IMG/VR virus record: IMGVR_UViG_3300022692_000007
Source of the DNA: a virus
DNA length: 46,181 nt
Reading direction: 5' to 3' (one strand)
The notes below the pieces were generated by a model that had not been told where the DNA came from, did not search any database, and saw only the letters and a program-made list of their open reading frames with translations. Shown in pieces: positions 56-45,316 of this stretch (positions within the stretch are counted from its first letter, which is position 1; every line of letters starts with the position of its first letter). Made by a program: the position numbers and the translations under genes.

Positions 56-70
56 GTGACTTCGTGTCAC
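56..70. repeat. Short palindrome GTGAC-ttcgt-GTCAC at the point where hsdS breaks off
   Basis: 5-bp inverted repeat (56-60 / 66-70) overlapping the premature TGA (67-69) of hsdS. Sequence beyond it is non-coding and AT-rich. Confidence 0.5.
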
Positions 71-1008
71 ATCCTCTGATTATACTTTTCTTCAGTGATA
101 AATCGTTCATTACTAAAATCATGAAAACCAACTTTTATATTATTTAATTGTATAATTGGAATTCCTTCATCTACATATTCCTCATTTTTTAAATCGGAAC
201 CGAAAGGTCCATCAACGAAAGAATAATTATCATCAGAAGCAGCATAATTTAAGTTGTTAATATCCCAATGCTCAGGAATTTCACCAATCCACTCAACACC
301 GCTATCTTTCATAGGCACATCAGGATTTAAACCTTTAGTAACAACTTGATTAATTAAAGCAGTTCTTTTTTCTTCAAGTAATTCTATCAATCGTTCGTTT
401 TTAGCTATTGTTTCGTCAATTTTAGCTGTTTTTTTGTCTAAGTAGTTAGCTATTTGTTGTTGTTCTTTAATAGTAGGCATTAATATTGATACTTTTGCCA
501 AATGTGTTGGTCCAAAATTAGGCTGACATGATCCAGTCATCATCAATCCCAATTGTTCACGAATATATTCAGATTGTAATGCCCATTTAATATAAGGTTG
601 TTTTAATTCATAATCTGATGTAGGATTTTTATTAATTCTAATTGTGCTTGTGTTTAAAATTACAGTTTCATCATCAGTATACTCAGCAACCTTGCCCCAA
701 GAGTTTCCTGAACTAGATAATAATAAATCTCCTTGGTCAACTGTAAAATGTGAATAAGTTTGTTTATATTCATCTTCAGAAATGAATTTTTCATAATTTG
801 AAAAATCAATCCCATTTGACGTAATATTTGTTACACAGATTACACGAACACCATCATCTGTAAATTGCCAATTTCTTAAACCTGGACCTTCTTGGAAGAA
901 AATTAAATTTTTAATTTTATGTATTTCCCAATGAATAGGAATCTTTCCAGCCCAAATATTATTTGAATTTTTATACTCAGGATAAGTTTTGTAACTCACA
1001 ATTTTCAC
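67..1008 (-). pseudogene. hsdS: Type I R-M specificity subunit, truncated within the second target-recognition domain
   Basis: HsdS conserved blocks: YKNSNNIWAGKIPIHW, PTIKEQQQIANYLDKKTAKIDETI...LEEKRTALINQVVTKGL, MKDSGVEWIGEIPEHW. The second TRD starts (GPFGSDLK) but stops after about 70 aa (EEKYNQRM*), with no second coiled-coil. Directly downstream of hsdM. Confidence 0.8.
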
Positions 1009-11962: not shown

Positions 11963-12304
11963 ATGTCTAAGCCATTGACTGAAACAATATCCTGGAGGCG
12001 GACAATCTGGACCTACGGATTTGTTAAAACCACTCTTTCAGGTTCACTAATCTCAACAGGTGTGGTTTTGATATTTAATGGTGTAACAGAACATCCATTG
12101 TTTAATGGATTTAATGAAATAGCTATTTTTGCCGGTTTAATTGCAATAGTGTTGGCAATTGTTGTTATCACAAGCATTGACAGGTATAAGGAAAAAACCA
12201 AAAAAGAAGAGCTTGAGGCTATTGACAGACAAATCGATGAAAAAGCCAAACGCATTGCAGAAGAAAAAGTGTTGGAATATCTGAGGGCGATTGAAAATGA
12301 ATAA
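11963..12304 (+). CDS. Two-TM membrane protein with C-terminal coiled coil (113 aa)
   Basis: AGGAGG RBS before ATG 11963. TM segments LSGSLISTGVVLIF and IAIFAGLIAIVLAIVVI. Confidence 0.6.
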   Translation: MSKPLTETISWRRTIWTYGFVKTTLSGSLISTGVVLIFNGVTEHPLFNGFNEIAIFAGLIAIVLAIVVITSIDRYKEKTKKEELEAIDRQIDEKAKRIAEEKVLEYLRAIENE

Positions 12305-13133
12305 GTACAATTCTTTTTTTAAAACCGTTGGAGGATCGGAAGGTGATAGATGCTTTTATCCAACAAGACTTGATTTATACGGTAAAGGCTGTTTTTTCAA
12401 CTGCAATTACTGCTATGCAAAACAGGTTTTAGATTTTAGAAAACTTTGGAACCCTGCTGATGTTGGAGTTGCACCACTACTCCAGGTTTACCGCACAATC
12501 GATAAAATTCCAGCTGGAAGTGTTGTAAGATTAGGTGGTCTAACTGACTGTTTCCAGCCAATTGAGCTTAAATACAGAAACACCTATAATGCAATTAAAA
12601 GACTTAACGAGAGAGGTATTCATTATCTGATTGTTACAAAATCTGATTTGATTGTTGAAGATGAATATATCAATATTTTAGATAATAATTTGGCCCATAT
12701 TCAAATTTCAATACCAACAAATAATAATGAGGTTTTGGCAAAAACTGATAATGCACCATGCTTTGAGAGAAGAAGAAACGCTATTGAGATTTTATTTAAT
12801 CTTGGTTTTGATGTATCTTTGAGATTATCACCATTTTTATTTGACACAGCTGACTATGATGTGATAAATGATATTGCTGTAGATAAGTGTCTTGTTGAGT
12901 TTTTGCGAACAAAACCAAGTCTTGAAAAAGAATTAAATGACTTTATTGATTTTGAACAATACTCTCTTAAATCTGGAGGGTACCGTCATTTGACACTTGA
13001 TAAAAAACTTGAAGTATTGTCCAAATTAGATTTTAAAGAATTATCTGTTTGTGATGATGTAGATTCTCATTATGATTATTTTACAGATAATATTAACTAC
13101 AATCCGAATGATTGTTGTAATTTAAATACATAG
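12297..13133 (+). CDS. Radical SAM enzyme, spore-photoproduct-lyase-like family
   Basis: CX3CX2C motif (GCFFNCNYCYA) preceded by RLDLY. LGGLTDCFQP, LIVTKS, QISI, VSLRLSP core. Terminal NDCCNL. Confidence 0.85.
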   Translation: MNKYNSFFKTVGGSEGDRCFYPTRLDLYGKGCFFNCNYCYAKQVLDFRKLWNPADVGVAPLLQVYRTIDKIPAGSVVRLGGLTDCFQPIELKYRNTYNAIKRLNERGIHYLIVTKSDLIVEDEYINILDNNLAHIQISIPTNNNEVLAKTDNAPCFERRRNAIEILFNLGFDVSLRLSPFLFDTADYDVINDIAVDKCLVEFLRTKPSLEKELNDFIDFEQYSLKSGGYRHLTLDKKLEVLSKLDFKELSVCDDVDSHYDYFTDNINYNPNDCCNLNT

Positions 13134-13157
13134 AAAAATTTAACGGAGTCGCCAAAA

Positions 13158-13823
13158 ATGATAGAAGTAGAAAAGATAAAAATAACTGATTTAATCCCTA
13201 GTGATTATAATCCAAGAATAATGCCTGAAAACGAGTCCACCAAATTAAGAAATAGCTTAGAGACTTTTGGTTTAGTGGACCCTATTGTAATCAACCTTAA
13301 AAACAACCATATCATTGGAGGTCACCAAAGGTTTGAGGTTTTAATTGACCAGCACCTTGAAGATAATAAAATCTTTGATGAGTTGAATTTAATCAGGCTT
13401 GGTGATATTGGTTGGGTATTTACCGATACTGAATTAACTGTTGAGTCTGATGACCATGAAAAAGCGCTGAACTTGACTTTAAACAAGATTGGCGGTGAAT
13501 GGGATACTGAGAAATTATTCACTGTCTTGGAAGAATTGGAAGTTAATAATTTTGATTTGGGCCTAACAGGTTTTGATGGTTTTGATGAGGAAATTGAAAT
13601 CAAAGGTTTACTTGACAAGATGGAATTTACAGACCCTCAAAAACAAGCAGTTAGCAGTGAATCTTCTGATAGAGAAACCTTTGATGATGATTTTGATGAC
13701 GATGATGATTCTGGTATTGGTTTTTATGAGATTACATTATTATTTGACAGTGAAGATGAAATGACTGAGGCATTTGATAAATTAGTAGAAGAAGGTTATA
13801 ATTGCAGGATGTCAGATTCATGA
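13158..13823 (+). CDS. ParB/Srx-like N-terminal domain protein of the type linked to viral DNA modification
   Basis: DLIPSDYNPR, FGLVDPIVIN, IIGGHQR, LNLTLNKIGGEWD, DLGLTGFD. Acidic linker and small C-terminal domain. Confidence 0.85.
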   Translation: MIEVEKIKITDLIPSDYNPRIMPENESTKLRNSLETFGLVDPIVINLKNNHIIGGHQRFEVLIDQHLEDNKIFDELNLIRLGDIGWVFTDTELTVESDDHEKALNLTLNKIGGEWDTEKLFTVLEELEVNNFDLGLTGFDGFDEEIEIKGLLDKMEFTDPQKQAVSSESSDRETFDDDFDDDDDSGIGFYEITLLFDSEDEMTEAFDKLVEEGYNCRMSDS

Positions 13824-14575
13824 ACATTTTTTTAGCAGCCTCAGAACATCAGTGTTTGCACAATTATGTTCAAGAGACCAATATAAGGCCGATAAACCAT
13901 CTTTTCAGCTATTTTTATATTCAGCAAAAGAAGATGTATGAGGATTATCTATTTTTCAAATCCAAATCTGAAAGGATTTTGATTGACAGTGGAGCTCATA
14001 CATTCCACACAGCTAAGGATATTGATTTTACTGAGTTTACTGTGAACTACTCAAAGTTTATAAAACAGACCGACACTTCAAATGTTGTTGGGTATTTTGA
14101 AATGGATATTGACAACCGTATAGGTTTTAAGAATGTTTTGAAGTTGAGAAAAATCATTGAAGAGGTTACAGATAAAGTTATTCCGGTTTGGCACAAGAAT
14201 CGTGGATTTAAAAAGTTCAAAAGGATGTGCAGCAATTATGATTATGTTTCAATATCCTGTCTTCCTATTGAGGGTATACCTGATCATGATTTGATTAAGT
14301 TTGCAAATGTTGCACATGATTATGATTGTAAAATTCATGGTCTTGGAGGTACCAGGAAATTCATTTTGAATCATGTTCCCTTTGATAGTGTTGATAGTGC
14401 CAGTTGGCTTTTTAGTGCTGTTAATGGAAGATACAAAAGTAAACACATTGACAGAAATAGCTTGACCTATTGTGAAAAACTTGTTTTGAGTTTACTTGAT
14501 TGGAGAAAAAAGCAGAGATATTACGAAAAATATTGGAGAGAGAAAAATAAGAGGTTAAAAAATGGTAAAATATGA
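13820..14575 (+). CDS. dpdA: tRNA-guanine-transglycosylase-fold protein, viral DpdA-like DNA base-exchange enzyme (251 aa)
   Basis: LIDSGAHTF, FEMDID, IPVWH, KIHGLG and FDSVDSASW match the TGT barrel and catalytic Asp motifs. Lacks the tRNA-TGT zinc site. ATGA overlap with the ParB gene. Confidence 0.75.
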   Translation: MNIFLAASEHQCLHNYVQETNIRPINHLFSYFYIQQKKMYEDYLFFKSKSERILIDSGAHTFHTAKDIDFTEFTVNYSKFIKQTDTSNVVGYFEMDIDNRIGFKNVLKLRKIIEEVTDKVIPVWHKNRGFKKFKRMCSNYDYVSISCLPIEGIPDHDLIKFANVAHDYDCKIHGLGGTRKFILNHVPFDSVDSASWLFSAVNGRYKSKHIDRNSLTYCEKLVLSLLDWRKKQRYYEKYWREKNKRLKNGKI

Positions 14576-15251
14576 TTATAATGTTAGAAATGATTTGAAA
14601 TTGAATTTTACACAGAAAAAAATTGTGTTGATTACTATATTTGCGGTTGCTGGAGTTTTAAGTGATTTGCTTGCAACTAAAGTTTGCAGTTGGGGATTTT
14701 TCAGCATTGAATGCGGTTGTATATTGTTCCCGGTTTGCTATTTGGTGGCTGATGTAATCACTGAGGTTTTTGGAGAAAAGACCATGATTAAAACAGCACT
14801 GTTGGGAATGAGTATGAAGGTTATGATGGTTATTTGTGGTTTGTTGTGTATTATGATGCCGTTTGATCCGGCCACTTTTACAGCTCAACCTCATTTGGCT
14901 TATGTGTTCGGTTTTGTTCCAAGAATCACCTTTGCAAGTCTTTGCGGTTATATTGTAGGTCAGTTTGTAAATGCTCGTTTGATGACAGTAATTGGAAATT
15001 ATACAAATGGTGAGCATCTGTTTTTACGTACCATTGGCTCAACTGTTGGTGGAGAATTGGTGGATACAATTTTATTTATTGGAATTGCTTTTGTTGGAAC
15101 CATGCCTCCAGTAATGTTGCTTGGTTTTATTTTAACTCAATATGTGATGAAGGTTTTAATTGAAACGGTACTTCAACCTGTTACATATAGGGCGGTTTCC
15201 TGGTGCAGAAGTGATGAATCCAGCATCATTTATAGAAAAGAAGATTTGTAA
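14562..15251 (+). CDS. yhhQ: Queuosine-precursor (preQ0/preQ1) transporter, YhhQ/VUT family
   Basis: Multi-TM protein with DVITEVFG, PRITFASLCGYIVGQFVN and RTIGSTVGGELVDTILF motifs. Overlaps the dpdA-like gene by 14 nt. Confidence 0.85.
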   Translation: MVKYDYNVRNDLKLNFTQKKIVLITIFAVAGVLSDLLATKVCSWGFFSIECGCILFPVCYLVADVITEVFGEKTMIKTALLGMSMKVMMVICGLLCIMMPFDPATFTAQPHLAYVFGFVPRITFASLCGYIVGQFVNARLMTVIGNYTNGEHLFLRTIGSTVGGELVDTILFIGIAFVGTMPPVMLLGFILTQYVMKVLIETVLQPVTYRAVSWCRSDESSIIYRKEDL

Positions 15252-20072: not shown

Positions 20073-23000
20073 CTACTTTTTAACTTTAACAGTCACTTTC
20101 TTGGTAACTTTACTATATGTTGCTGTGTAAGTTACTTTTTTACCCTTTTTAAGTTTTTTGAGAACTGATTTTTTAATAGTTATTTTTGCAACACCTTTGG
20201 CATTGGTTTTGGCTTTGTAGGATTTCTTATTAAACTTGAATTTAATAACTTTACCTTTGACAGCTTTACCATTTATTTTCAATGTTGCTTGGATAACCAG
20301 TTTTTTAGCAGATCTTTTGACCTTGACCTTTTTAAGTGTCAGTGTTGTTTTTGTCACAGGTTTTGGAGCAGGCTTATTCACTGTTACCTTGCCTGTTTTT
20401 GTGAATGATGAATATTTACTATCTCCAGAGTAGGTGATTGAGTAGGAGTATGCAGCATTGGCCAAATCAGGCACTTTAACGTTAGCCACACCATTGACAA
20501 CATCAAATTTATAGTCTTTACCGCCAATGCTTAAAGTGACAGTACCAGTTGCATCGCTAGGCAATTTTACAGTTACTGTTCCAGAAGCGGAACTAGGTAA
20601 AGTCGGAATAACAATATCTTTTTCATCAATATCATATGTGTACTTTCCGGTTGAACTGGATTTAACAAATAATTTATTAGTTTTATTATCATTTGTAACC
20701 GTGTTAATTGAAATAATATCATAAATTCCGATATTTAAATTCAATTTTAAACTAGCAACACCATCATCATTGGTCCAAACAACCTTATCTTCTCCATTAA
20801 TTTTAAATAAAACAGGAACATTGACTAATTTATCTCCAAAGTCATCTAAGAAAATTACATTAAATTCAAAATCAGTATTATTTACAGTATAAACATCATT
20901 TGATTCAATAGTTGAGAAGATTAACAAATAATTTGTTCTATTTTCATTGGCTATAGGATTAATAATCATTATGCGATAATAACCTATTTCCAAATCTTTA
21001 TCTAATATTGCAACACCATTCGAATCTGTCTGTGTTGAATAAAATGTGCCATTCACATTAAACATCACATATTTATTAACTAATAACTCTCCATATTCAT
21101 CATAGAACGTTGCTTGGAAATGCTCATCACTACCATAAACAATCCTAGTATCGTATGATTCAATAGGGTAAAAAGAAAATACTTTAAATATTCTTGTCAA
21201 TGAAACTGATTCAAAATTATCATCACCACTATAAATTATCTCTATTTCATGTTCACCCATCTCAGGTTCAAGAATATACTCATCACCAACATCCATAGAG
21301 TATTCATATTCACCATCAACATAAATATCAAATGTTCCAGTAGCATCACTTACGACACTTGGTCTAACAACTAAATCTTCACCTTCAACAACATTATTAA
21401 TAATCAAATCCAAATGAGGATTTTCTAATGGCAAAACATTAATTTCATCTGTTAGATTGCAAGAGGTATAATTAGTATTGCCGGAATAAAAGAGTGTGAT
21501 TCTGTATGTATCAACTTCCAAATCGTCTATGTTAAATTCAACATATCCATCAGTTATTTCGGAAGTATAGTTTCTACCGTTAAAGTTAACTGTAAATTCT
21601 CCTGTTAAATCTTCAGGTTGAATAATATTAATTGTAAACAAACCATTAACATTTACATCATCATATTCGATTTTTATTGTTGGAACCATTTTATATACTT
21701 CAAAAAATGCTCCACAACCAGTTCTTGAGACATTATTTACAAAATCAATATGGATAGAATAAACACCCGCTGCCAAATTAGGAATGGTTATGCTACCTTT
21801 ACGATTTTCAACATTACTATAAAAAGTCTGATTTAAAATTGAAGTTGAAATAATTCCTGAAACAGAATCTTGAAGCTCCACTTCAATAATTACATCATTA
21901 TTATAAGTAACATTTCTAACAGTAATGTTCATAGGTTCCTGTAAAACGGTAATGACACTTGAAGCTGAACAATAATTCATGTTTATAGTGTCATTGTTGC
22001 TTACCGTTAAGTCATAGTCTCCTCCCACTAAATTTTTTGCAGAAATTCTTCCAGTACCATTTGCATCAGTTTGGACATAATAGGTTTGGTAAGTAAGTTG
22101 AGGCATGTACAATTTAAGAATTATCCCTGGAACTGGCAATCCACTGTTAACGTTAGTGACATGAATTGTGACCTTATTGTCATCACCATAATATTCTTTA
22201 TATGGATCGATTTCGATTTTAATATTTGCTTTTATAACAGTAATGTTAGTTGTCAGTTTTTCAGATTTTAAAGCACCTGAAGTACTCATTTCAACACTAT
22301 AGCTCCCAACTTCAAGCTGTTTCATGCTGAGTGTACCGCCACTTTGATCGAAAATGTACAAGTTAGCTGTTTTAAATGAAGCTATACCATTTTCATCAAT
22401 GGTTGCAGAGTGGCCAACTGAAATGCTTCCTCTAAGGAGCAATGATAATTTTTTACCTTTTAATGAAGTAGTGTTATCATCCACATCAGTTACTTTAAAT
22501 GTGAAGTTACCGTCTTGGTATTCGTTAACTGTGTTTGCTGCAACAATTTGGACATTGTAAATCCTGTTTAAATTAATGTCTTTAGTTGCATTTACGATTC
22601 CTGTATATTTAATGTTTAAGTTTGCGGTGGTAAAGTTACCGTTTTCAAGAGTAAATATTACTGTTCTATTAACTAATTCCCATTCAGTAACTGTGATGTT
22701 TTTGGTTTCATTTCCATCATTATAGGTTACTGTAATGTTTAAGTTTTCTTTACTGAAATCATAGGTATCCACGCCATTGGTAATATTGATAATATGGATT
22801 TCACCTTTTTTAGTGGAATTCACATTAATTGAATTGCTGTTTATTTTAATTTCAGCATCATCATTTGTATTAATATCATTTAATTCATTATTTTCATTGT
22901 TTGTCTTACTATGAAGTTTATTTGTTTCATAATATGAATCAATTTTTCCAGTATCTTCCATAGAACTCATATCATTATTCTCTTTAGAAATAATATTTTC

Positions 23001-23138
23001 ATTTTCCACAGAAATAATTTCATCACTTTGATATTCACTAAACACAGTTGTTTCATTCGCATCACTAGCTACTGCACTAGCAATACTGAACAAACAAATT
23101 AGTAAACAAATGAATACTAAACTCTTTTTATATTTCAT
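20073..23138 (-). CDS. Large adhesin-like surface protein (1021 aa), antisense, between terL and portal
   Basis: GGGAG RBS then MKYKKSLVFICLLICLFSIASAVA signal peptide. Repeated Ig-like modules (YSGD, TDSNGVA). Lys-rich C-terminal domain (KAKTNAKGVAKITIKK). Confidence 0.85.
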   Translation of the reverse strand: MKYKKSLVFICLLICLFSIASAVASDANETTVFSEYQSDEIISVENENIISKENNDMSSMEDTGKIDSYYETNKLHSKTNNENNELNDINTNDDAEIKINSNSINVNSTKKGEIHIINITNGVDTYDFSKENLNITVTYNDGNETKNITVTEWELVNRTVIFTLENGNFTTANLNIKYTGIVNATKDINLNRIYNVQIVAANTVNEYQDGNFTFKVTDVDDNTTSLKGKKLSLLLRGSISVGHSATIDENGIASFKTANLYIFDQSGGTLSMKQLEVGSYSVEMSTSGALKSEKLTTNITVIKANIKIEIDPYKEYYGDDNKVTIHVTNVNSGLPVPGIILKLYMPQLTYQTYYVQTDANGTGRISAKNLVGGDYDLTVSNNDTINMNYCSASSVITVLQEPMNITVRNVTYNNDVIIEVELQDSVSGIISTSILNQTFYSNVENRKGSITIPNLAAGVYSIHIDFVNNVSRTGCGAFFEVYKMVPTIKIEYDDVNVNGLFTINIIQPEDLTGEFTVNFNGRNYTSEITDGYVEFNIDDLEVDTYRITLFYSGNTNYTSCNLTDEINVLPLENPHLDLIINNVVEGEDLVVRPSVVSDATGTFDIYVDGEYEYSMDVGDEYILEPEMGEHEIEIIYSGDDNFESVSLTRIFKVFSFYPIESYDTRIVYGSDEHFQATFYDEYGELLVNKYVMFNVNGTFYSTQTDSNGVAILDKDLEIGYYRIMIINPIANENRTNYLLIFSTIESNDVYTVNNTDFEFNVIFLDDFGDKLVNVPVLFKINGEDKVVWTNDDGVASLKLNLNIGIYDIISINTVTNDNKTNKLFVKSSSTGKYTYDIDEKDIVIPTLPSSASGTVTVKLPSDATGTVTLSIGGKDYKFDVVNGVANVKVPDLANAAYSYSITYSGDSKYSSFTKTGKVTVNKPAPKPVTKTTLTLKKVKVKRSAKKLVIQATLKINGKAVKGKVIKFKFNKKSYKAKTNAKGVAKITIKKSVLKKLKKGKKVTYTATYSKVTKKVTVKVKK

Positions 23139-23436
23139 ATAATTTCTCCCTAATTTTATTTTAATTGATATATATTTATGCACAAGATATGTATTAATAG
23201 TTTCGATTTAAAAAAATATTAAAACCACCTATTTTCTTTAATAGAATAATATTCTAATAATTATCACTAAATCAACTGACACTATTTTTATTAGAGTATA
23301 TATTGAAGGTGCATTTAATTTTACAAATTATGTTGCCGAATTTTACTTAGAAAATATTGCCACTAATGTGTCTAACCATTTTGTTTTTCCTTCTTAAAAA
23401 AATGTACCTTCATAATTCACCTTTTGAGCTGATTAA

Positions 23437-24771
23437 ATGAAAGTTAATTTCTCCAGAATAAATAATGGCTTGGAAATTAATAAAAAACAAATTCAAGCTA
23501 GTATTGCTCCAAAAACAAGAAAAGAAGATAAAGACTACAAATATAAACTTTATCCATTGGTTAGTGTTTCAATAGCTCAAAATCTTATCTTGCAAAATAA
23601 TAAACTTGACAAGGCAATACGTATTCTAGCTCAAGATGTGATATTAAATGAATTCACTTATCTAAATGATGAGAAAGAAACTGATGAAAATCTGATAAAT
23701 TTCTGGAAGAATAACATTAATGAATTGTACAAGCAAGTCCAAGAATTTTACAGTTATGGCTTTGGAGCTTCTGAAATTATTTTTGATGAAAAAACAGGCC
23801 GTCCAAAAGAACTGTATCAGATTCCAGCTGAAACCGTATGCATCAAACAAGAATCAAATGGTGATGGAACCTTCAGCTATTATGCTATTCAGGAAATTGT
23901 TGGAAAACCGGCTATTAAAATGAAGCTTTCAAGGTTTAAATATGATGCTGAAGACGATGATCTACCAACTTGCTTCTGGTTGGGTGGTGGAAAAACTTCT
24001 GAGTTTTATGAAATCCCTTATTGGGTGCCGGCTGTTAATAGTATTAGTGCAAAAGTTGCACTGGATGAGCTTAACGCCAAAAAAATTAATGAAGGTAACT
24101 TGATGAGCGGGATTTTAGTCATTAGACGTCCGCCGGCTATTGATGGTGAAAAAGAGGAAACCAAAAAAGATTTACAAAATCAAATGGCTGATGCTGGAAC
24201 AGGAATTTTGACTTTAGACTTGGAAAGTTTCAATACTGAAATTCCTTTAGAGGTGCAATATGTACCAATCAGTGAGCAAAACTATTCATATTTATCTGAA
24301 TTAGCCGATAGATGTGATGATGATATTTTGGCCTGTTTTAGTATACCAAAAGTACGTTTAATGATCGATGATGTTACGGAATCAATGAATTCAAATAAAT
24401 CTAATACAATCTATGAAATTTACACTAAAAGCTTAGAAAATGAGCAGCTACCATTTGAAATTGAAATCAACAAATTCAATAAAAAATATTTTGAATATGC
24501 TGGAACCGTTAATATTGAAACACCAATATTTAGTGATAAAAAAGATGTTGAAATCAATACAATTCTTACATTGTTCAATAACGGTTTAATTACTCTTGGT
24601 GAGGCTATTAAAGCAGTTAGTGTTTACTATCCGGCTTTACAATTGGAATATAATGATACAAATCCATTGTTTAGTGAAAGATATTACAATGGTAGGATTT
24701 TAGGAATGGCTGAAGCTTCCGAAGAAGATTTTAGTCAATTGAATGGTGTGATGGCATGGCTTCAATCTTAA
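23437..24771 (+). CDS. Portal protein
   Basis: EFYSYGFGASEIIFD...PKELYQIPAETV and ILACFSIP motifs, 444 aa, position after the terminase. Confidence 0.85.
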   Translation: MKVNFSRINNGLEINKKQIQASIAPKTRKEDKDYKYKLYPLVSVSIAQNLILQNNKLDKAIRILAQDVILNEFTYLNDEKETDENLINFWKNNINELYKQVQEFYSYGFGASEIIFDEKTGRPKELYQIPAETVCIKQESNGDGTFSYYAIQEIVGKPAIKMKLSRFKYDAEDDDLPTCFWLGGGKTSEFYEIPYWVPAVNSISAKVALDELNAKKINEGNLMSGILVIRRPPAIDGEKEETKKDLQNQMADAGTGILTLDLESFNTEIPLEVQYVPISEQNYSYLSELADRCDDDILACFSIPKVRLMIDDVTESMNSNKSNTIYEIYTKSLENEQLPFEIEINKFNKKYFEYAGTVNIETPIFSDKKDVEINTILTLFNNGLITLGEAIKAVSVYYPALQLEYNDTNPLFSERYYNGRILGMAEASEEDFSQLNGVMAWLQS

Positions 24772-31891: not shown

Positions 31892-34087
31892 ATGGTAGAT
31901 AATAATCTTGATATTAACATTACAGCAAGAGCTGACAAGACTGAAGTTGAGGATTTGTCCGAAGCCATATCCACACTAAAAGAAATGGAAAGTGATGTAG
32001 ATATTGATGTTAATGTTGAAGATTCAGAAGTTGTTAATGCTGAAGAATCTGTAGAAAATCTTGATACCTCAATGCAAAATGCCTCAAATAGTTCTGATAA
32101 TTTATCTTCATCATTAAGTGGCATTGACAGTTCACCTATAGATGAATTAGGGGTTTCTGCTCAAAATGCTGAATCAGATGTTGAAGGATTAGGAAATAGT
32201 CTTGAATTAATTGAAGCCGGAGCTTTAATGAGTATATCAAGTGAGTTATCCAGTATTGGTAGTAACGCTGAAGGTATGGCTCAAGATATGAACACAGCAG
32301 CCATAAGTGTTGGTCAACTATCGACACAAACAGGTGTTGCCGAACCTAAAATGATTAGTTTAATTAATAATATATCAAATGCTACATTTCCAAATGATGA
32401 AGCAATGATGTATGTTAAAAGTCTTGACCAAATCGGTGTTTCTAGTGAAAATCTTGGCAAATCAGCAACAGATTTAGACCGTATTAATGATGCATTTGGT
32501 CTGGGTGCTCAAACTACAAATAGCTTAGGTCAGGAACTTAGTGTTCTTGGTGTAGATATGAATAATGTTTCATCAAGTTTTAATGCACTTGCTTATGCTA
32601 ATTCAAACACTGTCGGCGGAATGCAGAACTATTATACTTTCTTAAGAAAATATGACTCCCAATTCAATGAATTAGGTTTTAATGTTGATCAAGCATCTGT
32701 CATTATTGCTGGTGCCACACAAAAATTTGGTGGCGGTCGTGCAGCGTTAACTGGTTTATCAGATGCATTAAAAGAATCTAATGGTGATACAAAAGCATTA
32801 GAACAAGCACTTGGACTTCAAGCTGGATCAATTTCAAATGCTTCTCAACTAACTGGTGAATATGAAGGTCAATTACAAACACTTGCTAGTGAAGAAGCTG
32901 AACATAAAACTTGGTTGGACCAAATAAATGCTGCTTGGGAAGATATGAGTCTTTTAATGTCTCCTGTATTAGCTCCAATGACTAGTTTTTTAGGTTTAAT
33001 TGGTCAAGCCGGTTCATTTGCTGTGGGTATTAATGGTATTGTAACTCTTGCAGGTTCATTAAAGACATTAGAATTAACTCAAATTGCAAGTAATATTGCA
33101 ACTAAAGCGGGTGCTGCAGCTCAATGGTTAATGAATGCAGCAATGAGTGCAAATCCAATAATGATTGTTGTACTTGCAATCATCGCATTGATTGCAGTTT
33201 TAGGTTATCTTTACTTTAATAACGAGCAAGTAAGGGCCGCAATAGATGCTTTGGGCCAATCTTTCATATTGGCTGGTCAAATAATTTATACTTCTGTTAT
33301 GAACTTTGTAAATTGGGTTATAAGTTCACTGCAAAACCTTTACACTTATATTATGACATTAGGAGGATTATTACAATCCAATGTTTCAATAACTGGCAAT
33401 AATATTGTTGATGGTGTAATTGGTGTAATGATTTTTATTGCAACTCTTCCATTCCAATTAGCAATGATATTCACCAATATGATTGCAAGAACACTTGGAT
33501 TTGGTAATAATTTTGTCCAGAGAATGTTAAGTGCTGGTGTAAATTCAGTTACTCGATTTATGGGTCAAATTTCAAGCATGCCTGGTAGGTTTGTGGCTGA
33601 ATTGAACAGTATGTTAAGTGCTGTAGGACAATGGGCTGCAACATTACCTCAAAAATTTTGGGAAGCCGGTGTCAATGCTGTTAAAAATTTCCTGAATGCT
33701 TTAGGTATTCATTCTCCAGGAATTATGCAAATAAAATTGCTCAAGGAGATGGAGGATACAGGTGATAGAATTCCAACTGCAAGTCAAAACATCATCAGAA
33801 ATCTCGGAAATGTAGGGGAAAATGCTGTTAAATCCTTCGGAAATCCAAGATTCAATGTTGGTTTTAATACCGACAGTTTAAATGATACCAACGCATCAAA
33901 TTTCGATTTTTCTAACGAAAATTTATTAGAAGTATTATTGGCTATTGGTGATAATAAAAATGGTAATGTGTTAAATCTCACTTTAAATGTTGGCACAGTT
34001 GATAAAAGGGAAAGAATTGATGAAATCATTGAAGTTATCAGAGAATACATATTTTGGGATAATAAAACAGCAGGGAGGACAGTATGA
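31892..34087 (+). CDS. Tape measure protein
   Basis: 731 aa, Ala/Gly/Ser-rich helical protein. ANPIMIVVLAIIALIAVLGYLY segment. C-terminal LGIHSPG motif. Confidence 0.88.
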   Translation: MVDNNLDINITARADKTEVEDLSEAISTLKEMESDVDIDVNVEDSEVVNAEESVENLDTSMQNASNSSDNLSSSLSGIDSSPIDELGVSAQNAESDVEGLGNSLELIEAGALMSISSELSSIGSNAEGMAQDMNTAAISVGQLSTQTGVAEPKMISLINNISNATFPNDEAMMYVKSLDQIGVSSENLGKSATDLDRINDAFGLGAQTTNSLGQELSVLGVDMNNVSSSFNALAYANSNTVGGMQNYYTFLRKYDSQFNELGFNVDQASVIIAGATQKFGGGRAALTGLSDALKESNGDTKALEQALGLQAGSISNASQLTGEYEGQLQTLASEEAEHKTWLDQINAAWEDMSLLMSPVLAPMTSFLGLIGQAGSFAVGINGIVTLAGSLKTLELTQIASNIATKAGAAAQWLMNAAMSANPIMIVVLAIIALIAVLGYLYFNNEQVRAAIDALGQSFILAGQIIYTSVMNFVNWVISSLQNLYTYIMTLGGLLQSNVSITGNNIVDGVIGVMIFIATLPFQLAMIFTNMIARTLGFGNNFVQRMLSAGVNSVTRFMGQISSMPGRFVAELNSMLSAVGQWAATLPQKFWEAGVNAVKNFLNALGIHSPGIMQIKLLKEMEDTGDRIPTASQNIIRNLGNVGENAVKSFGNPRFNVGFNTDSLNDTNASNFDFSNENLLEVLLAIGDNKNGNVLNLTLNVGTVDKRERIDEIIEVIREYIFWDNKTAGRTV

Positions 34088-34842
34088 GTTTTTTTAGTGT
34101 AATAAGTGCTGATGAAATTAGTAAAGGTTCAACCCCTATGTCTTTAAAAGTTATCCAAAACAACGGTGTTGGTGTAACTCCTGATTTAAAAATCATCGTC
34201 AATGACCTGAATGAGGGAAACAAACAATTTCTAAACAACGGTTACGGTGGAATTTCATTTAAAATAGATGTAATAATCAATAAAAATGATATGTTTGGAA
34301 ATACTACCGTTCTTGAAAAGTTACATGAATGGATGATAACCATGACTCCATTATATGTAGTTACTGAAGCCATTGACATTAAAAATGACCGATATATCAT
34401 TTCAAAAAACAGTGATAGAAAACAGACCTATCGTGATAATACTGTTTGGTCATTGGAATTCATTCAATTCAAGGGTATCAACATTACTAAATTTAAAAAT
34501 GATAATTCTTATGTTAATAAAGCTAAGAAAAATTATGCAAAGGCAAAAAAGAAAGCAAAGGTCAGTAAAAAATCAAAGGCTAACAGCACCAACAAGAATA
34601 AATTAAAAAAATGCAAACTCTCAAATCTGAAATATGGTTTAAAAAAGAGTAATTGTGTTAAATACATGCAGAAGGTGTTGAAAAAGAAGGGATACCTGAC
34701 TAAAAAACAGGTTGATGGTTATTTTGGTCCTGTAACAAAAACAGCACTTAAAAAGTTTCAGAAAAAATATAAAAAGAAATACAAATTAAAGGTGAACGGG
34801 AAGGTTGATAAGGCAACTTTAAAAGCATTAATCAATGTATAA
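34084..34842 (+). CDS. Tail tube initiator-position protein with C-terminal PG_binding_1-like domain
   Basis: Follows the TMP. Lys-rich linker, then VKYMQKVLKKKGY...VDGYFGPVTKTALKKFQ...LKVNGKVDKATL. Confidence 0.7.
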   Translation: MSFFSVISADEISKGSTPMSLKVIQNNGVGVTPDLKIIVNDLNEGNKQFLNNGYGGISFKIDVIINKNDMFGNTTVLEKLHEWMITMTPLYVVTEAIDIKNDRYIISKNSDRKQTYRDNTVWSLEFIQFKGINITKFKNDNSYVNKAKKNYAKAKKKAKVSKKSKANSTNKNKLKKCKLSNLKYGLKKSNCVKYMQKVLKKKGYLTKKQVDGYFGPVTKTALKKFQKKYKKKYKLKVNGKVDKATLKALINV

Positions 34843-34855
34843 GGTGGTTTTGAAT

Positions 34856-37252
34856 ATGGCAATAAGCAGTATTGTTGAAAAGGTGTATTATGACACCAAT
34901 CTTGTTCAAAATCATTCAATCATTTATGTAGGTAGGTTTGCCAATGCCAAATCAAAAACTCTTGGTAATGATTTTTGGAAAAACAAATTGCAGATTTATT
35001 GGACCAAATATCAGATAAAAGAAACTGATATGAGGCAAAAGACTGCAACTTTCACCAGCCCACATTATTTTGACCTAACGACCGGTTTATATACAATTTT
35101 GATTACAAGTCCTTATCATGAAGACTTTGGAGGCATCATTTTAACTGTAGATTATGATAAATCAACAGGATTATACAGCTACCAATGTCAGGACTTCAGC
35201 AGAAAGTACCAAAGCAAATTTAATCTGATTTCTAAAAACAATAGCTATTATGATTTATTGAGATTGTTCCTCACTCAAAATGGTGTTAATAATGGAAAGG
35301 GTCGGGTATCAGCTAAAAAATTAAGCAAGTACAAAACAGAACTTTCAGGGCTGAGGCCTAAACTTTATTATGATCAGGGAGTTTGGGAAAATGGTATAAA
35401 CTTCAATCCAATGAAATCAACTACCCAAATGGTATTTCGTGATGTGTCATATATTGAAGCGATACGTAATTTGGTGTTTAGTACAGGTGCTTATATTGAC
35501 GTATACTTCAATAAATATGGTGTGCTTCAAATAGAACCATTTAGTAAAGAAGATTGGCTTCAAAGTGGTATTTATCTAACAACACCAGAATTGGCAAGTA
35601 GCAAATTCAAGTTTGACACCACCAACATTATCACCGGAGTTGTTGTTAATTCTCAAGACAGTTTAAAGAAAGGACACAGCTATTCAAGTGAAAAACTTGT
35701 TAGGCTGGATTTAAGTGCATTTTTCGGTAATTTAACAACAACTATTGATAATCCAAACAAAACAACTGCTGCAAAAACTTCATCTTCTAAAAAAGTTTCC
35801 AGTAAAAAATCAACCAATACAAAGCAAAAAGAGGGAACTGGTATCACTGTGTTTATGAACATTGACAATATTCATTCTAAATCAAGAGATATGAAGTTAA
35901 TGAAGGATATTGGTAAATATCTTAAAAAAAGAGGTTACAAGGTTGAAATTGGTGGTATCGGACCAAGTTATCATTATTCTCAAATAAACCGTGTGAAAAA
36001 GAATGGAATATACATGTGCATTTATGGCGGTGCATGTGCTGGAACCTTAAAGGAGCACTGGTCTTCCAATCACTATAAAAGTGTTCTCAAAAAGAAAAAG
36101 GCAAAAATGGTAGTGGCATTCTTATCACCACCAAGTACAAATATTCACAATTTAAAATGGCTGCCTCGTGCTCATGATGACAATTTTTCACCTTCAAGTT
36201 TCAGAGGCGTCAGCAATCCTGAAAAACATCTTTTAAATGCTGGTGTAGGTGTTGTCATTGGTAAAAATGCAAAGGAAATTGCTTCCAAATTCCCTAATTT
36301 CAAAACTTCTGATAAAAAAACAACTAAATCTACAAAGAAAACTACAACTCCAATTTCCACAAATACTGCCATGTCAATTAATAATGAAATGGCTAGTGCC
36401 AGAAACAGATTAAGTGACAGTATTCGTGATTTATTGAGTTTAAAACTCACATTACCGTTGGGAAATCCATTATTAAAAAAACTGCATACTAATATGTTTT
36501 TATATACAGAATTGCCAACTGAATTTGTATTAGAAAACTTTTCTACACTTGCAGAAGTTCTAAATTCAACCTATAATCGTTATGTCGGATATTCATTGAA
36601 TAGATGGTATATTGAAGCTGTTACAATAACCAATGATGGAACAAAGTTTGACGCTGAAGTTGAACTAAATCCGTTCCCAAGTAGTGTCAGACAATATCGC
36701 GAAAGTAGGCTTAAATGGGAAGAGGATTATAAATCCGCTCAACAATCAAATTCAAGTTCATCTAAAACATCATCTAAATCTAAAACAACCAGTAAATCAA
36801 AGAAAAACACCAGCTTAAAAGGTGGAGAAGGAAAAGTCATAGATAATCTTGTTAAAAAGATTGTTGGAAATGAAACCAATGATTTAAAGAAAGCCAAATT
36901 AATACATTCCTGGTTATTGGATAATGTAACTTATTCAGGTTATAGGAATTCTAAGTACAAAACACCAGTTAAATGTTATAATAACCGTCGACATTTGAAT
37001 TGTGCAGACACCAGTAGGTTGACAGCAAGTATGTTCCGTTCTGCAGGTATAAATTGTTTTGTTGTACATTCTACATGTCATTACTACACTGTTATGAAAT
37101 ATAAAGGCAAATTGTATTGCAGTGATGCAACAAGTAAGCAAAGATCATTCAACACCTATTGGAGAGCATCATCATGTGGTAATGGTAAGACAGCCAAATT
37201 TACAGGTAAAAATTGCTATTATGCTGTATGTGGTAAAGCTCCATGTAGTTAG
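34856..37252 (+). CDS. Baseplate hub protein with an inserted enzymatic-looking domain and a C-terminal transglutaminase-like (Pei-type) cysteine peptidase
   Basis: Hub-like N-terminal and late segments (WYIEAVTIT...VELNPF). Insert with GIGP, GGACAGT and WLPRAHDDNFS. C-terminal NCAD / CHYY / SDAT Cys-His-Asp triad. Confidence 0.75.
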   Translation: MAISSIVEKVYYDTNLVQNHSIIYVGRFANAKSKTLGNDFWKNKLQIYWTKYQIKETDMRQKTATFTSPHYFDLTTGLYTILITSPYHEDFGGIILTVDYDKSTGLYSYQCQDFSRKYQSKFNLISKNNSYYDLLRLFLTQNGVNNGKGRVSAKKLSKYKTELSGLRPKLYYDQGVWENGINFNPMKSTTQMVFRDVSYIEAIRNLVFSTGAYIDVYFNKYGVLQIEPFSKEDWLQSGIYLTTPELASSKFKFDTTNIITGVVVNSQDSLKKGHSYSSEKLVRLDLSAFFGNLTTTIDNPNKTTAAKTSSSKKVSSKKSTNTKQKEGTGITVFMNIDNIHSKSRDMKLMKDIGKYLKKRGYKVEIGGIGPSYHYSQINRVKKNGIYMCIYGGACAGTLKEHWSSNHYKSVLKKKKAKMVVAFLSPPSTNIHNLKWLPRAHDDNFSPSSFRGVSNPEKHLLNAGVGVVIGKNAKEIASKFPNFKTSDKKTTKSTKKTTTPISTNTAMSINNEMASARNRLSDSIRDLLSLKLTLPLGNPLLKKLHTNMFLYTELPTEFVLENFSTLAEVLNSTYNRYVGYSLNRWYIEAVTITNDGTKFDAEVELNPFPSSVRQYRESRLKWEEDYKSAQQSNSSSSKTSSKSKTTSKSKKNTSLKGGEGKVIDNLVKKIVGNETNDLKKAKLIHSWLLDNVTYSGYRNSKYKTPVKCYNNRRHLNCADTSRLTASMFRSAGINCFVVHSTCHYYTVMKYKGKLYCSDATSKQRSFNTYWRASSCGNGKTAKFTGKNCYYAVCGKAPCS

Positions 37253-37276
37253 AATTTAATTTTGAAGGTGTTTTTT

Positions 37277-37678
37277 ATGGAAGAGATAATTGAATTAGGG
37301 ACAGATTTAAACACCAATTGGGAATTTAAAGACGGTGATTTGATATTGGTTGAAAATAAAGACAATCTAATACAATCTATCTTGAATAGGTTAAATTCTG
37401 AATATGATAGTTTAGATTTGTTCTATTATGATTACGGTAGTGTGTTATCTAATTTTCTTGGTTGGAAACGTAATGATGAAACATTGGAATTTATACGATT
37501 GGAAATTGAGGATACTCTTGAACAAGAACCTCGATTAAGTGATTTTAGTGTTGAGGCATCATTTAATGAAGTTGGTGGAATTTTAATCAAATTATTCATT
37601 GTTTTTGATGATGAAACTGATTTTAGTTTAAGTTTAGTTCTTGAAAAGGATGGTGAAATCGTTGCCGATAGAGAATGA
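37277..37678 (+). CDS. Baseplate wedge protein, gp25 / Mu gp46-like
   Basis: NLIQSILNRL...DYGS...IRLEIEDTLEQEPRL pattern. Confidence 0.75.
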   Translation: MEEIIELGTDLNTNWEFKDGDLILVENKDNLIQSILNRLNSEYDSLDLFYYDYGSVLSNFLGWKRNDETLEFIRLEIEDTLEQEPRLSDFSVEASFNEVGGILIKLFIVFDDETDFSLSLVLEKDGEIVADRE

Positions 37679-38828
37679 AAGTTTTTACAATCTCATTGGA
37701 GATGAAATCTCTCGTGAAAGCATTGTAGAGCGAATGATAGAATATTACAAAGAAAAGTTAGAAGTAGGTGAAACAAGAGTAACTGATTTTAACGAAGGTT
37801 CAGAAATCAGAAACCTTTTAGAATCAATTGCTGTTGATTTATATGACTTGATGGAAGATAATTATGAAGCAACAAAAATTGCTTTTATATCTTCTGCCTA
37901 TGGTGAATGGCTTGATTTACATGGTGAAAATCCACTAATCAATCTTCCACGTGATACAGGATCAGAGGCTGCAGGTTTTGTAACCTTTTCAATACCTGAT
38001 GTTAGAACAGTTGATATTATCATTCCTGAAGAAACATTGCTTGTTTGTGAGGATAATGATTTGGAATATATTACAGATTCTGAAGCTGTTATTATTGCTG
38101 GAGATACAAGTGTTGATGTTTATTGTACCTGTTTAACTGTTGGCGAAGATGGGAATTGTCCGGCAAATACAATTACAATGATTGATGATGATACTGTTGA
38201 GGATACTGTTGAGGTAACAAATGCTGAGGCTTTTAGTGAAGGTACGGATTATGAGGAAGATGATGAATACCAGGAAAGACTTTTAAGTGCCATTAGAATT
38301 GATAACTTTGGAAGTATTGGCTATTATCAGGATTTAGGTAATAATATTGATGGAGTTCATGATATTTATTTAATTGATGATGAGACCTATACTCGCAAAA
38401 TCCTTGTTAACGGTTATGAAAAACCTGTTTCTGAAGAGGTTTTAGTTAATGTCCTGCAGGAATTCACAAGACCGGAAAATATCGTTTTAGGGCATCGCTT
38501 TATAGTAGACGTTCCTGAATACATTGTCTTGAATCTGAATTTGGAGTTGGTGGTTGAATATGAGTTTGAAGATGAATTAATCATGAATAGGTTGCAATCA
38601 TTTTTCAATGGTGGCATAACAGATGATGGATTTGATTTTGAAGGATTTTCAATAGGACAAAGCTTAAATGAAAACATTTTTTATTCAGCCTTAGAAAGTT
38701 TAGATGGAGTTTTAAGAGTTTCGGCCACCATTCTTGATGATGATTCTAATTTAAGTTCAATTACAGTTAATAATAATGAAGTAATTAAACTTGGTGAGGT
38801 ATCAATTAATAAAACTTTAAGTGATTGA
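37641..38828 (+). CDS. Baseplate J-like protein (start may be TTG 37662)
   Basis: EGSEIRNLLE, AYGEWLDLHG, G+E+D+EY+ERLL and GSIGYY motifs. Confidence 0.85.
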   Translation: MKRMVKSLPIENESFYNLIGDEISRESIVERMIEYYKEKLEVGETRVTDFNEGSEIRNLLESIAVDLYDLMEDNYEATKIAFISSAYGEWLDLHGENPLINLPRDTGSEAAGFVTFSIPDVRTVDIIIPEETLLVCEDNDLEYITDSEAVIIAGDTSVDVYCTCLTVGEDGNCPANTITMIDDDTVEDTVEVTNAEAFSEGTDYEEDDEYQERLLSAIRIDNFGSIGYYQDLGNNIDGVHDIYLIDDETYTRKILVNGYEKPVSEEVLVNVLQEFTRPENIVLGHRFIVDVPEYIVLNLNLELVVEYEFEDELIMNRLQSFFNGGITDDGFDFEGFSIGQSLNENIFYSALESLDGVLRVSATILDDDSNLSSITVNNNEVIKLGEVSINKTLSD

Positions 38829-44329: not shown

Positions 44330-45316
44330 ATGGTAAAAACAAATGAAATTCAGTCAATGGCTGATAAAATCAAAAAATATGTAGAAAAAAACAAGAAAAT
44401 TCCAAGTTCTGTTAAAATAAACAATACAGAATATAGTAAAAATGAATGTTTATATGTGTTGTCATATGCTATAAACAATTTTAAAAAAGAAATTGCTGTA
44501 AAAGAAGTTAAAAAAGCAAGTAATCCTGTAAATACTACAATCAATGAAGATATTTATGAATCTGATTATAAGGATCAGGCCAAAAGATTATTTCAATTTA
44601 TAAAACAAAACGGCCAAGTTCCAAATTATATTAAATCTGTTAAATCCAAAAAAGAGATTAGTCCTGATTTGGAGTTATTTGCTTTTTCAAAAATCATTGT
44701 TTATTATAATGTACATAAGAGATTGCCAAATTATTGCAATTATAATTCCAATGATTTAAAGGCTGTTAAATCAAGTAAAAATAATTGCACTAATCCATAC
44801 AAATCATCTCCACATCCAACTTCTAAAGGTTGTGATGCTATGGGTCAAAATAATGGTTATTATTGTGCAGATGCTGCAATGCAACATTCACTTTATAAAT
44901 TTGGTATTAAAGTCTCTCAAAGCCAATTAGCAAAATGGGCCGGCACTACAACTTCAGGAACATCTCACGAAGGAATCCGTACAGCTATTGCAATGGTAAA
45001 TAAGAAATTTGGAGTTAACATTTCAGTTAAAGAAGTAAATTTCTCAGATATTGGAATTAAAGGTTTAGCTGAAATAATTTGTAAAAAGAATGTTGATGCG
45101 ATCATACATTTGTGTTATCGTTTAAAATGGGGACATTATGAGTCTATAAATGAAATTAATGTGAAAACAAATATGTTGAAGGTTTTAAACTCACTTGGAG
45201 ATAAATGCACAGGCAGCTGCTATTGCGGTTATGTTGAAGAAAGATCATTAGCTGTAGAAAAATCATACATCAGTGGAGTCAGTCAAAAATCCGTAATTAT
45301 TTTAACTAAAAATTAG
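44330..45316 (+). CDS. Endolysin: pseudomurein-binding repeats plus C39-type cysteine peptidase (PeiR-like endoisopeptidase)
   Basis: PMBR-like units (MADKIKKYVEKNKKIPSSV; QAKRLFQFIKQNGQVPNYI). C39 motifs GQNNGYYCA, SQSQLAKWAGTT.GTS, WGHY, VLNSLG. Confidence 0.85.
   Translation: MVKTNEIQSMADKIKKYVEKNKKIPSSVKINNTEYSKNECLYVLSYAINNFKKEIAVKEVKKASNPVNTTINEDIYESDYKDQAKRLFQFIKQNGQVPNYIKSVKSKKEISPDLELFAFSKIIVYYNVHKRLPNYCNYNSNDLKAVKSSKNNCTNPYKSSPHPTSKGCDAMGQNNGYYCADAAMQHSLYKFGIKVSQSQLAKWAGTTTSGTSHEGIRTAIAMVNKKFGVNISVKEVNFSDIGIKGLAEIICKKNVDAIIHLCYRLKWGHYESINEINVKTNMLKVLNSLGDKCTGSCYCGYVEERSLAVEKSYISGVSQKSVIILTKN

Follow-up and report, generated by a model that had tools for sequence, protein, structure and literature searches.

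A baseplate hub of a methanogen provirus with a predicted transglutaminase/Pei-fold peptidase and an inserted flavodoxin-like module

How does a virus with a contractile tail get across the pseudomurein wall of its archaeal host? We know of no described route by which tailed viruses cross this wall, and the Pei endolysins are, to our knowledge, the only characterised pseudomurein-lytic enzymes. In bacteriophages hub-borne lysins are established, and for phages of Gram-positive bacteria lysins carried by hubs and spikes open holes in the wall. The question is raised here by IMG/VR record IMGVR_UViG_3300022692_000007, a stretch of 46,181 nucleotides (the window, G+C content ~30%) that carries a myovirus-like provirus, i.e., one with a contractile tail, of a Methanobrevibacter-like methanogen from gut or rumen. 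An initial annotation described its gene at 34856..37252 as a tail hub with two candidate pseudomurein-degrading domains, an insert (domain (a)) and a C-terminal domain (domain (b)). The explanation that we consider best overall, with a probability of about 0.6, is a predicted baseplate hub with two linker-tethered modules, of which domain (b) would cut the wall and domain (a) would act on it.

The open reading frame 34835-37252 (plus strand) gives a stop-free translation of 805 amino acids. All residue numbers used here are counted from 34835, the start of this longest frame, and not from 34856. The true start of the gene is most likely the ATG at 34856 since the ribosome-binding site AAGGTGGT is found 7 nt ahead of it and alignments of homologues begin at residue 8, so both the spacing and the homologues speak for the start coordinate chosen at the outset. 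The gene can be divided into the following parts:

34856..37252, plus strand: baseplate hub gene, probable true start at 34856 (the longest open reading frame starts at 34835)
34856..35749, plus strand: N-terminal part of the hub (residues 8-305), channel-forming domains of gp27/gp44 fold according to structural alignment, predicted local distance difference test score (pLDDT) mostly >85
35750..35836, plus strand: linker 1 (residues 306-334), rich in lysine, serine and threonine (K/S/T) and disordered by composition and model
35837..36292, plus strand: domain (a) (residues 335-486), inserted module, flavodoxin/CheY-like by sequence and fold searches
36293..36358, plus strand: linker 2 (residues 487-508), site of the gene split in many relatives, from composition and comparison with these relatives
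36359..36754, plus strand: C-terminal part of the hub (residues 509-640), predicted to complete the gp44-like fold, structural alignments reaching residues 613-648
36755..36826, plus strand: linker 3 (residues 641-664), the richest in K/S/T, by composition and model
36827..37249, plus strand: domain (b) (residues 665-805), transglutaminase-core or Pei-like cysteine peptidase fold by Pfam and fold comparison
37001-37003, 37079-37081 and 37124-37126, plus strand: Cys723, His749 and Asp764, the triad of domain (b)

The AlphaFold model of the whole hub (mean pLDDT 82) resembles hubs of contractile systems with Foldseek E values of 8e-12 to 1e-4. Structural alignments were obtained with the MuSo2 tail protein (3cdd_E; Z 18.7, 293 residues, root-mean-square deviation (rmsd) 3.5 Å), the diffocin hub (8v3w_H; Z 18.1), Mu gp44 (1wru; Z 17.9), the phiCD508 needle (9g8s_q; Z 17.5), a tail protein of Haloferax tailed virus 1 (9h4p_BD; Z 15.1), the hub of phage 812 (9euf_E; Z 14.8) and T4 gp27 (1k28_D; Z 13.6). 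All of them cover model residues ~23-620 with domain (a) looped out, and those to the hubs of Mu (gp44), MuSo2, diffocin and phiCD508 start at model residue 23-28. A hub of ~320 residues is thus aligned across ~600 residues, and residues 335-486 therefore represent a true insertion in the hub fold. The gene order of the window is terminase, XkdF-type protease, tail sheath (29785), tape measure (31892), a PG_binding_1 protein (34084) and the hub, followed by a gp25-like sheath initiator, baseplate J, immunoglobulin (Ig)-like fibre proteins together with a Gp10_C protein, and a lysin (44330). The same place between the tape measure/wall-binding protein and gp25/gpJ is occupied by the hub in four related loci (L001, L003, L004 and L008). 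Both the modelled fold, with residues 23-618 aligned to Mu-type hubs, and this canonical gene position identify the protein as a predicted central baseplate hub of the gp27 / Mu gp44 / XkdQ fold, as the initial annotation had suggested.

The two modules had also been said to be framed by K/S/T-rich linkers, and composition and model agree on this. The K/S/T content reaches 60-95% in stretches ~305-335, 487-510 and 640-662, and the segments with pLDDT <50 (311-330, 491-508 and 643-657) coincide with them, these stretches being the sole long segments of low confidence in the model. In many relatives the hub is encoded by two genes with the break exactly at linker 2, while it is fused in this window. 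A related contig (L001:6001-8429) contains a 509-aa gene for the N-terminal hub part and domain (a), then a 303-aa gene whose product is 38% identical to hub residues 518-774. In L008:1976-4451 the hub is likewise split at linker 2, with N-terminal part and domain (a) in one gene followed by C-terminal part and peptidase in the other. Around half of the 120 homologues listed are short forms that end at residue ~486.

Domain (b) can be assigned to a known fold. It matches PF01841 (Transglut_core) over residues 671-748 with E 1.3e-10 and 41.9 bits against a gathering score of 23, and its model can be superimposed on PeiP (8z4f_A, chain residues 158-300) with Z 11.0 and rmsd 3.0 Å over 120 residues of model segment 661-805. 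For the same segment a Z of 11.4 was reached with the transglutaminase-like cysteine protease 3isr_B, the rmsd of the two superpositions being in the range of 2.6-3.0 Å. With the family profile the best match in the whole PDB is PeiW (8jx4; E 0.007) with Cys and His aligned, and a second Pei entry comes next. Cys723 at 37001, His749 at 37079 and Asp764 at 37124, i.e., the triad at the coordinates first assigned to it, are kept in 71/71, 68/71 and 64/71 relatives, respectively. In the model the cysteine is located at the N-terminus of a helix and the other two residues on the next two strands, which is the canonical topology. A C-terminal module with a transglutaminase/Pei cysteine-peptidase fold and a conserved Cys723-His749-Asp764 triad is therefore predicted, in keeping with the transglutaminase-like Cys-His-Asp domain proposed from the letters. 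The likeness to PeiW and PeiP on which this proposal drew holds for the catalytic fold and fails for the sequence: domain (b) is outside the C71/Pei family, with no PF12386 match, and the Pfam search of the hub found no PMBR (PF09373).

Among the sequences compared, domain (b) is closest to a cellular Methanobacterium protein of the DUF11+Transglut_core type (L032:4720-6144; hhalign probability 97%, E 3.9e-11). The NCAD, GH and SxD motifs of the two are aligned, and the cellular protein itself weakly touches the C71 model. The idea that domain (b) duplicates the lysin encoded by this virus was rejected (hhalign probability 0.4%). The simplest reading is that the virus would run a relative of the exported transglutaminase class in the hydrolytic direction.

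Domain (a) is of a different kind. The motifs noticed originally are found at 35864-35872 (DNI, residues 344-346), 35954-35965 (GIGP), 36026-36046 (GGACAGT) and 36158-36190 (WLPRAHDDNFS). Folded alone with 51 relatives, the module is predicted by AlphaFold2 with pLDDT 95.7 and a predicted template modelling score of 0.90 as a five-stranded parallel alpha/beta sandwich. It resembles CheY-like receivers, B12-binding domains, type II dehydroquinase and halves of sugar-binding proteins. The top Z values are 9.5-10.1 and the Foldseek template modelling (TM) score is ~0.5, with many unrelated families tied at Z 8-10. The model thus allows a confident assignment to the flavodoxin/CheY-like fold, which is a fold class only and not a family.

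Searches for a family gave little. In Pfam, PHROGs and NCBIfam there is no model for domain (a), the stray matches to B12-binding, TIR_2 and DAGK_cat being below threshold. Single-sequence searches of the PDB returned nothing meaningful and the profile search of the PDB nothing significant (best match an ‘endolysine’, 9jzo, E 0.12), a look-up in the ESM Atlas was uninformative (score <=0.83), and no description of the module was found in the literature searched. One viral match is clear, namely a metagenomic ‘endopeptidase tail’ protein (E 1e-6) that is probably a true relative. For an Amidase_3 with its His-Glu-His zinc ligands, the 9jzo match is weak, no Pfam match recurs and the fold is not among the top fold matches. 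Three further candidates, by contrast, were set aside. An SGNH/GDSL esterase, with the Ser nucleophile of block I (GDS) and the DxxH of block V, does not agree with the residue before Asp344, which is Ile here and in 44 hub copies, nor with the missing DxxH, and SGNH fold matches are weak (BFVD, E 1e-3 to 1e-2, TM ~0.4). A PMBR identity was discarded as domain (a) never matches the repeat and merely adjoins it in other proteins. The class I amidotransferase-like reading, with a G-x-Cys-x-G ‘nucleophile elbow’ and His-x-Asp, was dropped as a firm one because His447 is replaced by Trp, Tyr or Ser in about one fifth of the sequences. The suggestion of a second hydrolase found no known hydrolase fold or family behind it, the fold searches giving generic matches of the CheY/B12-binding-like type.

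Conservation within domain (a) was counted over 254 copies. Asp344 is present in every ungapped sequence, Asp352 in 240/242 and Asp448 in 251/254, and His380 is conserved in 226 copies including all 120 hub copies. Position 401 is occupied by Cys in 164 and by Asp in 88 of the 254 copies, so the catalytic cysteine proposed for the GGACAGT motif is not universal, and neither it nor His447 is invariant. As Ser, Thr and Asn never occur there, Cys/Asp401 argues for a functional anion. The residue covaries with position 404 (36035-36046), Cys401 being found with Thr404 in 161 copies and Asp401 with Val, Met or Leu404 in 75, which may reflect no more than the capping of a helix. Some of the conserved residues come after strands 1, 2 and 3 and some at the start of helix 1, and the others lie in a long excursion of ~40 residues that precedes the last strand and carries the RAHDDNFSP loop. 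In flavodoxin-type folds ligands and metals are bound at the edge where these strands end, and from the fold class it can be inferred that the key residues D344, D352, H380, C401, D448 and D449 are placed at such an edge.

The distribution of domain (a) is narrow. A full scan of 1.84 billion representatives gave 180 clusters, 102 of them at E <= 1e-10. Of the 55 genome loci 53 are labelled Methanobrevibacter, Methanobacterium, Methanobacteriaceae or similar, and the two others look like mis-binned contigs. In the phylum of a Methanobacterium genome 271/329 genomes contain the domain, often in several copies per genome. There is always one copy per protein. PMBR co-occurs with it in 29/112 proteins, and Peptidase_C71, Transglut_core, PG_binding_1 and Prophage_tail are further partners. 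The cellular architectures include a signal peptide followed by the domain alone and a signal peptide with 1-6 PMBR sets followed by the domain, where no other effector is present even behind up to six sets (L028 and L034). Among the other fusions are a protein of domain (a), PMBR and C39-like peptidase (P0174), a siphovirus-type tail-tip protein with domain (a), Prophage_tail, PMBR and C39-like peptidase (P0227), a YQBQ-type hub with domain (a) and Transglut_core (P0163), two other hubs with domain (a) at the N-terminus (P0131 and P0178), and a protein in which domain (a) stands in place of PMBR beside a Pei-type catalytic domain (P0231).

Domain (a) can thus be considered, on the sequences compared, as a single-copy mobile module that occurs nearly only in Methanobacteria with pseudomurein walls and in their viruses, as a rule joined to PMBRs or cysteine peptidases. 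The mention in the initial annotation of similar motifs in Methanobacteriales cell-wall proteins proves correct, many cellular proteins having domain (a) fused to PMBRs. Judged by the clusters of domain (a) and by the score of domain (b) above the PF01841 gathering score, none of this two-module arrangement is due to chance. On the chromosome of Methanobacterium ERen5 a row of genes (L032:699-6144) consists of a Big_5+PMBR gene, two PMBR-domain (a) genes and then the DUF11+Transglut_core gene, so that the pair of modules joined in the viral hub is echoed by neighbouring genes of a cell.

Genes around the hub code for further tail and wall-related proteins:

31892..34087, plus strand: tape measure protein (PhageMin_Tail match)
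34084..34842, plus strand: protein in XkdP position with C-terminal PG_binding_1 (E 1.5e-13)
37262..38828, plus strand: gp25-like sheath initiator and baseplate J genes (profile matches)
44330..45316, plus strand: separate exit lysin with PMBR and C39-like cysteine peptidase (Pfam matches)

The protein in XkdP position, 252 aa long, is encoded immediately upstream of the hub, and a PG_binding_1-protein gene also precedes the hub in the related loci L001, L003, L004 and L008. PG_binding_1 is known from bacterial murein-binding proteins; here it is encoded by an archaeal virus, and the protein probably gives the tail tip a third component that binds the wall. The peptidase of the exit lysin is read by Pfam as C39-like and not as C71 and shows no profile similarity to domain (b), so that the virus, by sequence, appears to encode two unrelated cysteine peptidases, one in the lysin and one as domain (b) of the hub.

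From these observations the following course of events can be proposed. On tail contraction the presumably trimeric hub at the tip of the tube would show three copies of each linker-tethered module to the wall. Domain (b) would act on the pseudomurein cross-link, hydrolysing one of its isopeptide or peptide bonds via an acyl-enzyme at Cys723, and so open a local hole. Domain (a) would either remove a second type of bond or hold the tip on the wall. Were it catalytic, its site would be an acidic pocket, perhaps one that binds a metal, made up of Asp344, Asp352, His380, Cys/Asp401 and Asp448/449 where the parallel sheet has its C-terminal edge. The PG_binding_1 protein would add a third contact with the wall, and the PMBR-C39 lysin would serve exit.

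Several results weigh against this proposal and have to be considered together with the alternatives. The spatial clustering of the domain (b) triad and that of the domain (a) pocket are predicted from topology only, and a Pfam search at E <= 1 found no match to PF12386 (C71). In addition, the closest relatives of domain (b) are cellular exported transglutaminase-core proteins, and in a recent pangenome study the enzymes put forward as most likely to form this cross-link of pseudomurein were exported transglutaminases (PMC11915815). On the grounds of sequence and relatives domain (b) might have no part in entry and might instead join virion or wall parts as a true transglutaminase, or serve as a protease used only in assembly or maturation of the tail tip. 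We regard this as unlikely, as domain (b), hung on the hub by a flexible linker, is placed like known virion-associated lysins and its fold matches the catalytic domain of PeiP. Moreover, unrelated cysteine peptidases recur likewise on tail tips of methanogen viruses (C39-like in P0227), which points to a shared wall-cutting role. Even less probable appears the idea that both modules are host-range or adhesion decorations, acquired as cargo from host surface proteins and without a role in penetration. Both are indeed found in host adhesin-like proteins, and modules are shuffled in the hub family, with domain (a) internal or N-terminal and the gene fused or split. Against it stand the triad of domain (b), with its cysteine retained by every relative, and the polar residues of domain (a), strictly kept in all 120 hub copies. 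Besides, the centre of the hub is not the usual site of receptor binding, and separate Ig-like fibre genes are located downstream.

The role of domain (a) is more evenly balanced. Its hub copies are strongly basic (mean net charge +15), which fits a binder, and in proteins with a signal peptide and Ig-like arrays it is found at the extreme C-terminus like an anchor. Three fold searches listed no lysozyme, amidase, glycosidase, SGNH or class I amidotransferase-like fold among their matches, which means lack of support and not exclusion. The module may accordingly be a non-catalytic domain for recognition of pseudomurein or wall, maybe a metal-dependent lectin-like one, that docks and orients the tail tip and anchors cellular proteins while domain (b) alone cuts. 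This view, to which we give somewhat less than even odds, also agrees with the tied fold matches to ligand-binding or receiver-type domains, with the replacement of PMBR next to the Pei-type domain in P0231 and with the variation of His447 and Cys401. It is less easily reconciled with the presence of always a single copy, whereas wall-binding modules typically repeat, and with proteins in which domain (a) follows up to six PMBR sets and no other effector is present. P0174 already has a PMBR between domain (a) and the peptidase, and four acidic or thiol positions are near-invariant down to ~25-30% identity. Many binding repeats with one terminal effector, together with the three independent viral settings in which domain (a) is paired with a cysteine peptidase, argue for a catalytic type of architecture, the conserved residues agree with a pocket for catalysis or for a metal, and the chances that domain (a) is a second enzyme can be put at about even. 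More tentatively, it could found a non-Pei family of pseudomurein-active enzymes, e.g., a hydrolase, dependent on a metal or on Cys/Asp, that attacks the glycan backbone or the amide between talosaminuronic acid and peptide. Such a family would include host autolysins (signal peptide, PMBR and domain (a)) that were captured by viruses onto hubs, tail tips and lysins beside a cysteine peptidase. Action on the glycan backbone, as first considered for the insert, is speculation as nothing points to it; a review of 2011 stated that no enzyme was known that cuts the pseudomurein glycan strand (PMC3210951). A function as neither enzyme nor wall binder seems quite unlikely.

Comparison with known systems shows which parts of the hub with its wall-cutting candidate domain (b) are familiar. 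The hub of phage 812 / phage K (9euf) has an active CHAP ‘cleaver’ that was shown to degrade cell walls and attacks the host wall at injection (PMC13433997). It shares with the present protein the gp27-type contractile hub (Z 14.8) and a C-terminal peptidase of the papain clan with Cys and His. It differs in that the host here is archaeal with a pseudomurein wall, the peptidase is transglutaminase/Pei-like instead of CHAP and a saposin-like clamp domain is missing; conversely, the phage 812 hub is without the inserted flavodoxin-like module, and the present hub is known from sequence and models. The XkdQ/YqbQ-type hubs, i.e., Mu gp44, the 43-kDa protein of MuSo2, diffocin and phiCD508, give the best fold matches (Z 17.5-18.7), their genes likewise follow those for the tape measure and for an XkdP-like protein that binds the wall, and the relative P0163 matches Pfam YQBQ. 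These hubs are ~320-380 aa long without an enzyme domain, whereas the present one has about 300 additional residues in two modules and three low-complexity linkers.

PeiW and PeiP (MEROPS C71; 8jx4 and 8z4f), from viruses of Methanobacteriales, have the catalytic fold in common with domain (b) including aligned Cys and His. Identity is ~12%, however, and domain (b) is predicted to be located on the virion hub instead of in a soluble endolysin and has no N-terminal PMBR. The exported transglutaminase-like proteins of Methanobacteria (L032:4720-6144; OG0000044 of PMC11915815) are its closest relatives in sequence, but they are cellular, possess a signal peptide and are proposed cross-link makers, whereas the viral copy on the hub is presumably hydrolytic. 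Domain (a) has the five-stranded parallel sandwich of CheY-like and B12-binding domains and, like the metal pocket of receivers, acidic residues where strands 1 and 3 end. It is not related to them in sequence and differs by its extracellular, wall-associated occurrence and its ~40-residue excursion.

Among the candidates scored, relatives of the hub are common in metagenomes (475 proteins at E <= 0.001) and occur on 27 IMG/VR contigs with 33-99% identity, while none was found in GenBank phage records. The host is placed in Methanobrevibacter and relatives because of the PMBRs and the labels of related contigs. Two contigs, L003 (hub with a 92% identical domain) and L056 (domain (a)), were deposited in metagenome-assembled genomes labelled Clostridia and Gammaproteobacteria and are probably mis-binned contigs of methanogens or viruses. 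In the early region of the window (12291-15251, plus strand) a radical SAM protein, a ParB_N-like protein and a Vut_1 (YhhQ-type) transporter are grouped, which may be a viral module for nucleobase or DNA modification. Two large adhesin-like genes with Ig repeats (Big_3_5/Big_1) are located within the provirus at 20073-23183 (minus strand) and 8218-10098 (plus strand). One of the two resembles a moron in that it runs against the terminase gene and the following gene of the head module (23437-24771), between which it is placed. The left edge of the window (67-3015, minus strand) contains the HsdS and HsdM genes of a type I restriction-modification system.

The archaeal hub with its predicted Pei-fold peptidase adds a new variant to the known hub-borne lysins. 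For viruses of pseudomurein-walled methanogens it provides a concrete virion-borne candidate for entry and would be the archaeal counterpart, built from different parts, of the hub-lysin strategy of phages of Gram-positive bacteria. Domain (a) may matter even more, as a module with a confident fold and no family assignment that is found in about four fifths of the genomes searched in the Methanobacterium phylum and is tied to PMBRs. A catalytic domain (a) would represent a new class of wall enzyme and might be an autolysin of the cells themselves, and besides PeiR it might become a tool against methanogens of rumen and gut; a binding one would be a second pseudomurein-targeting module besides PMBR.

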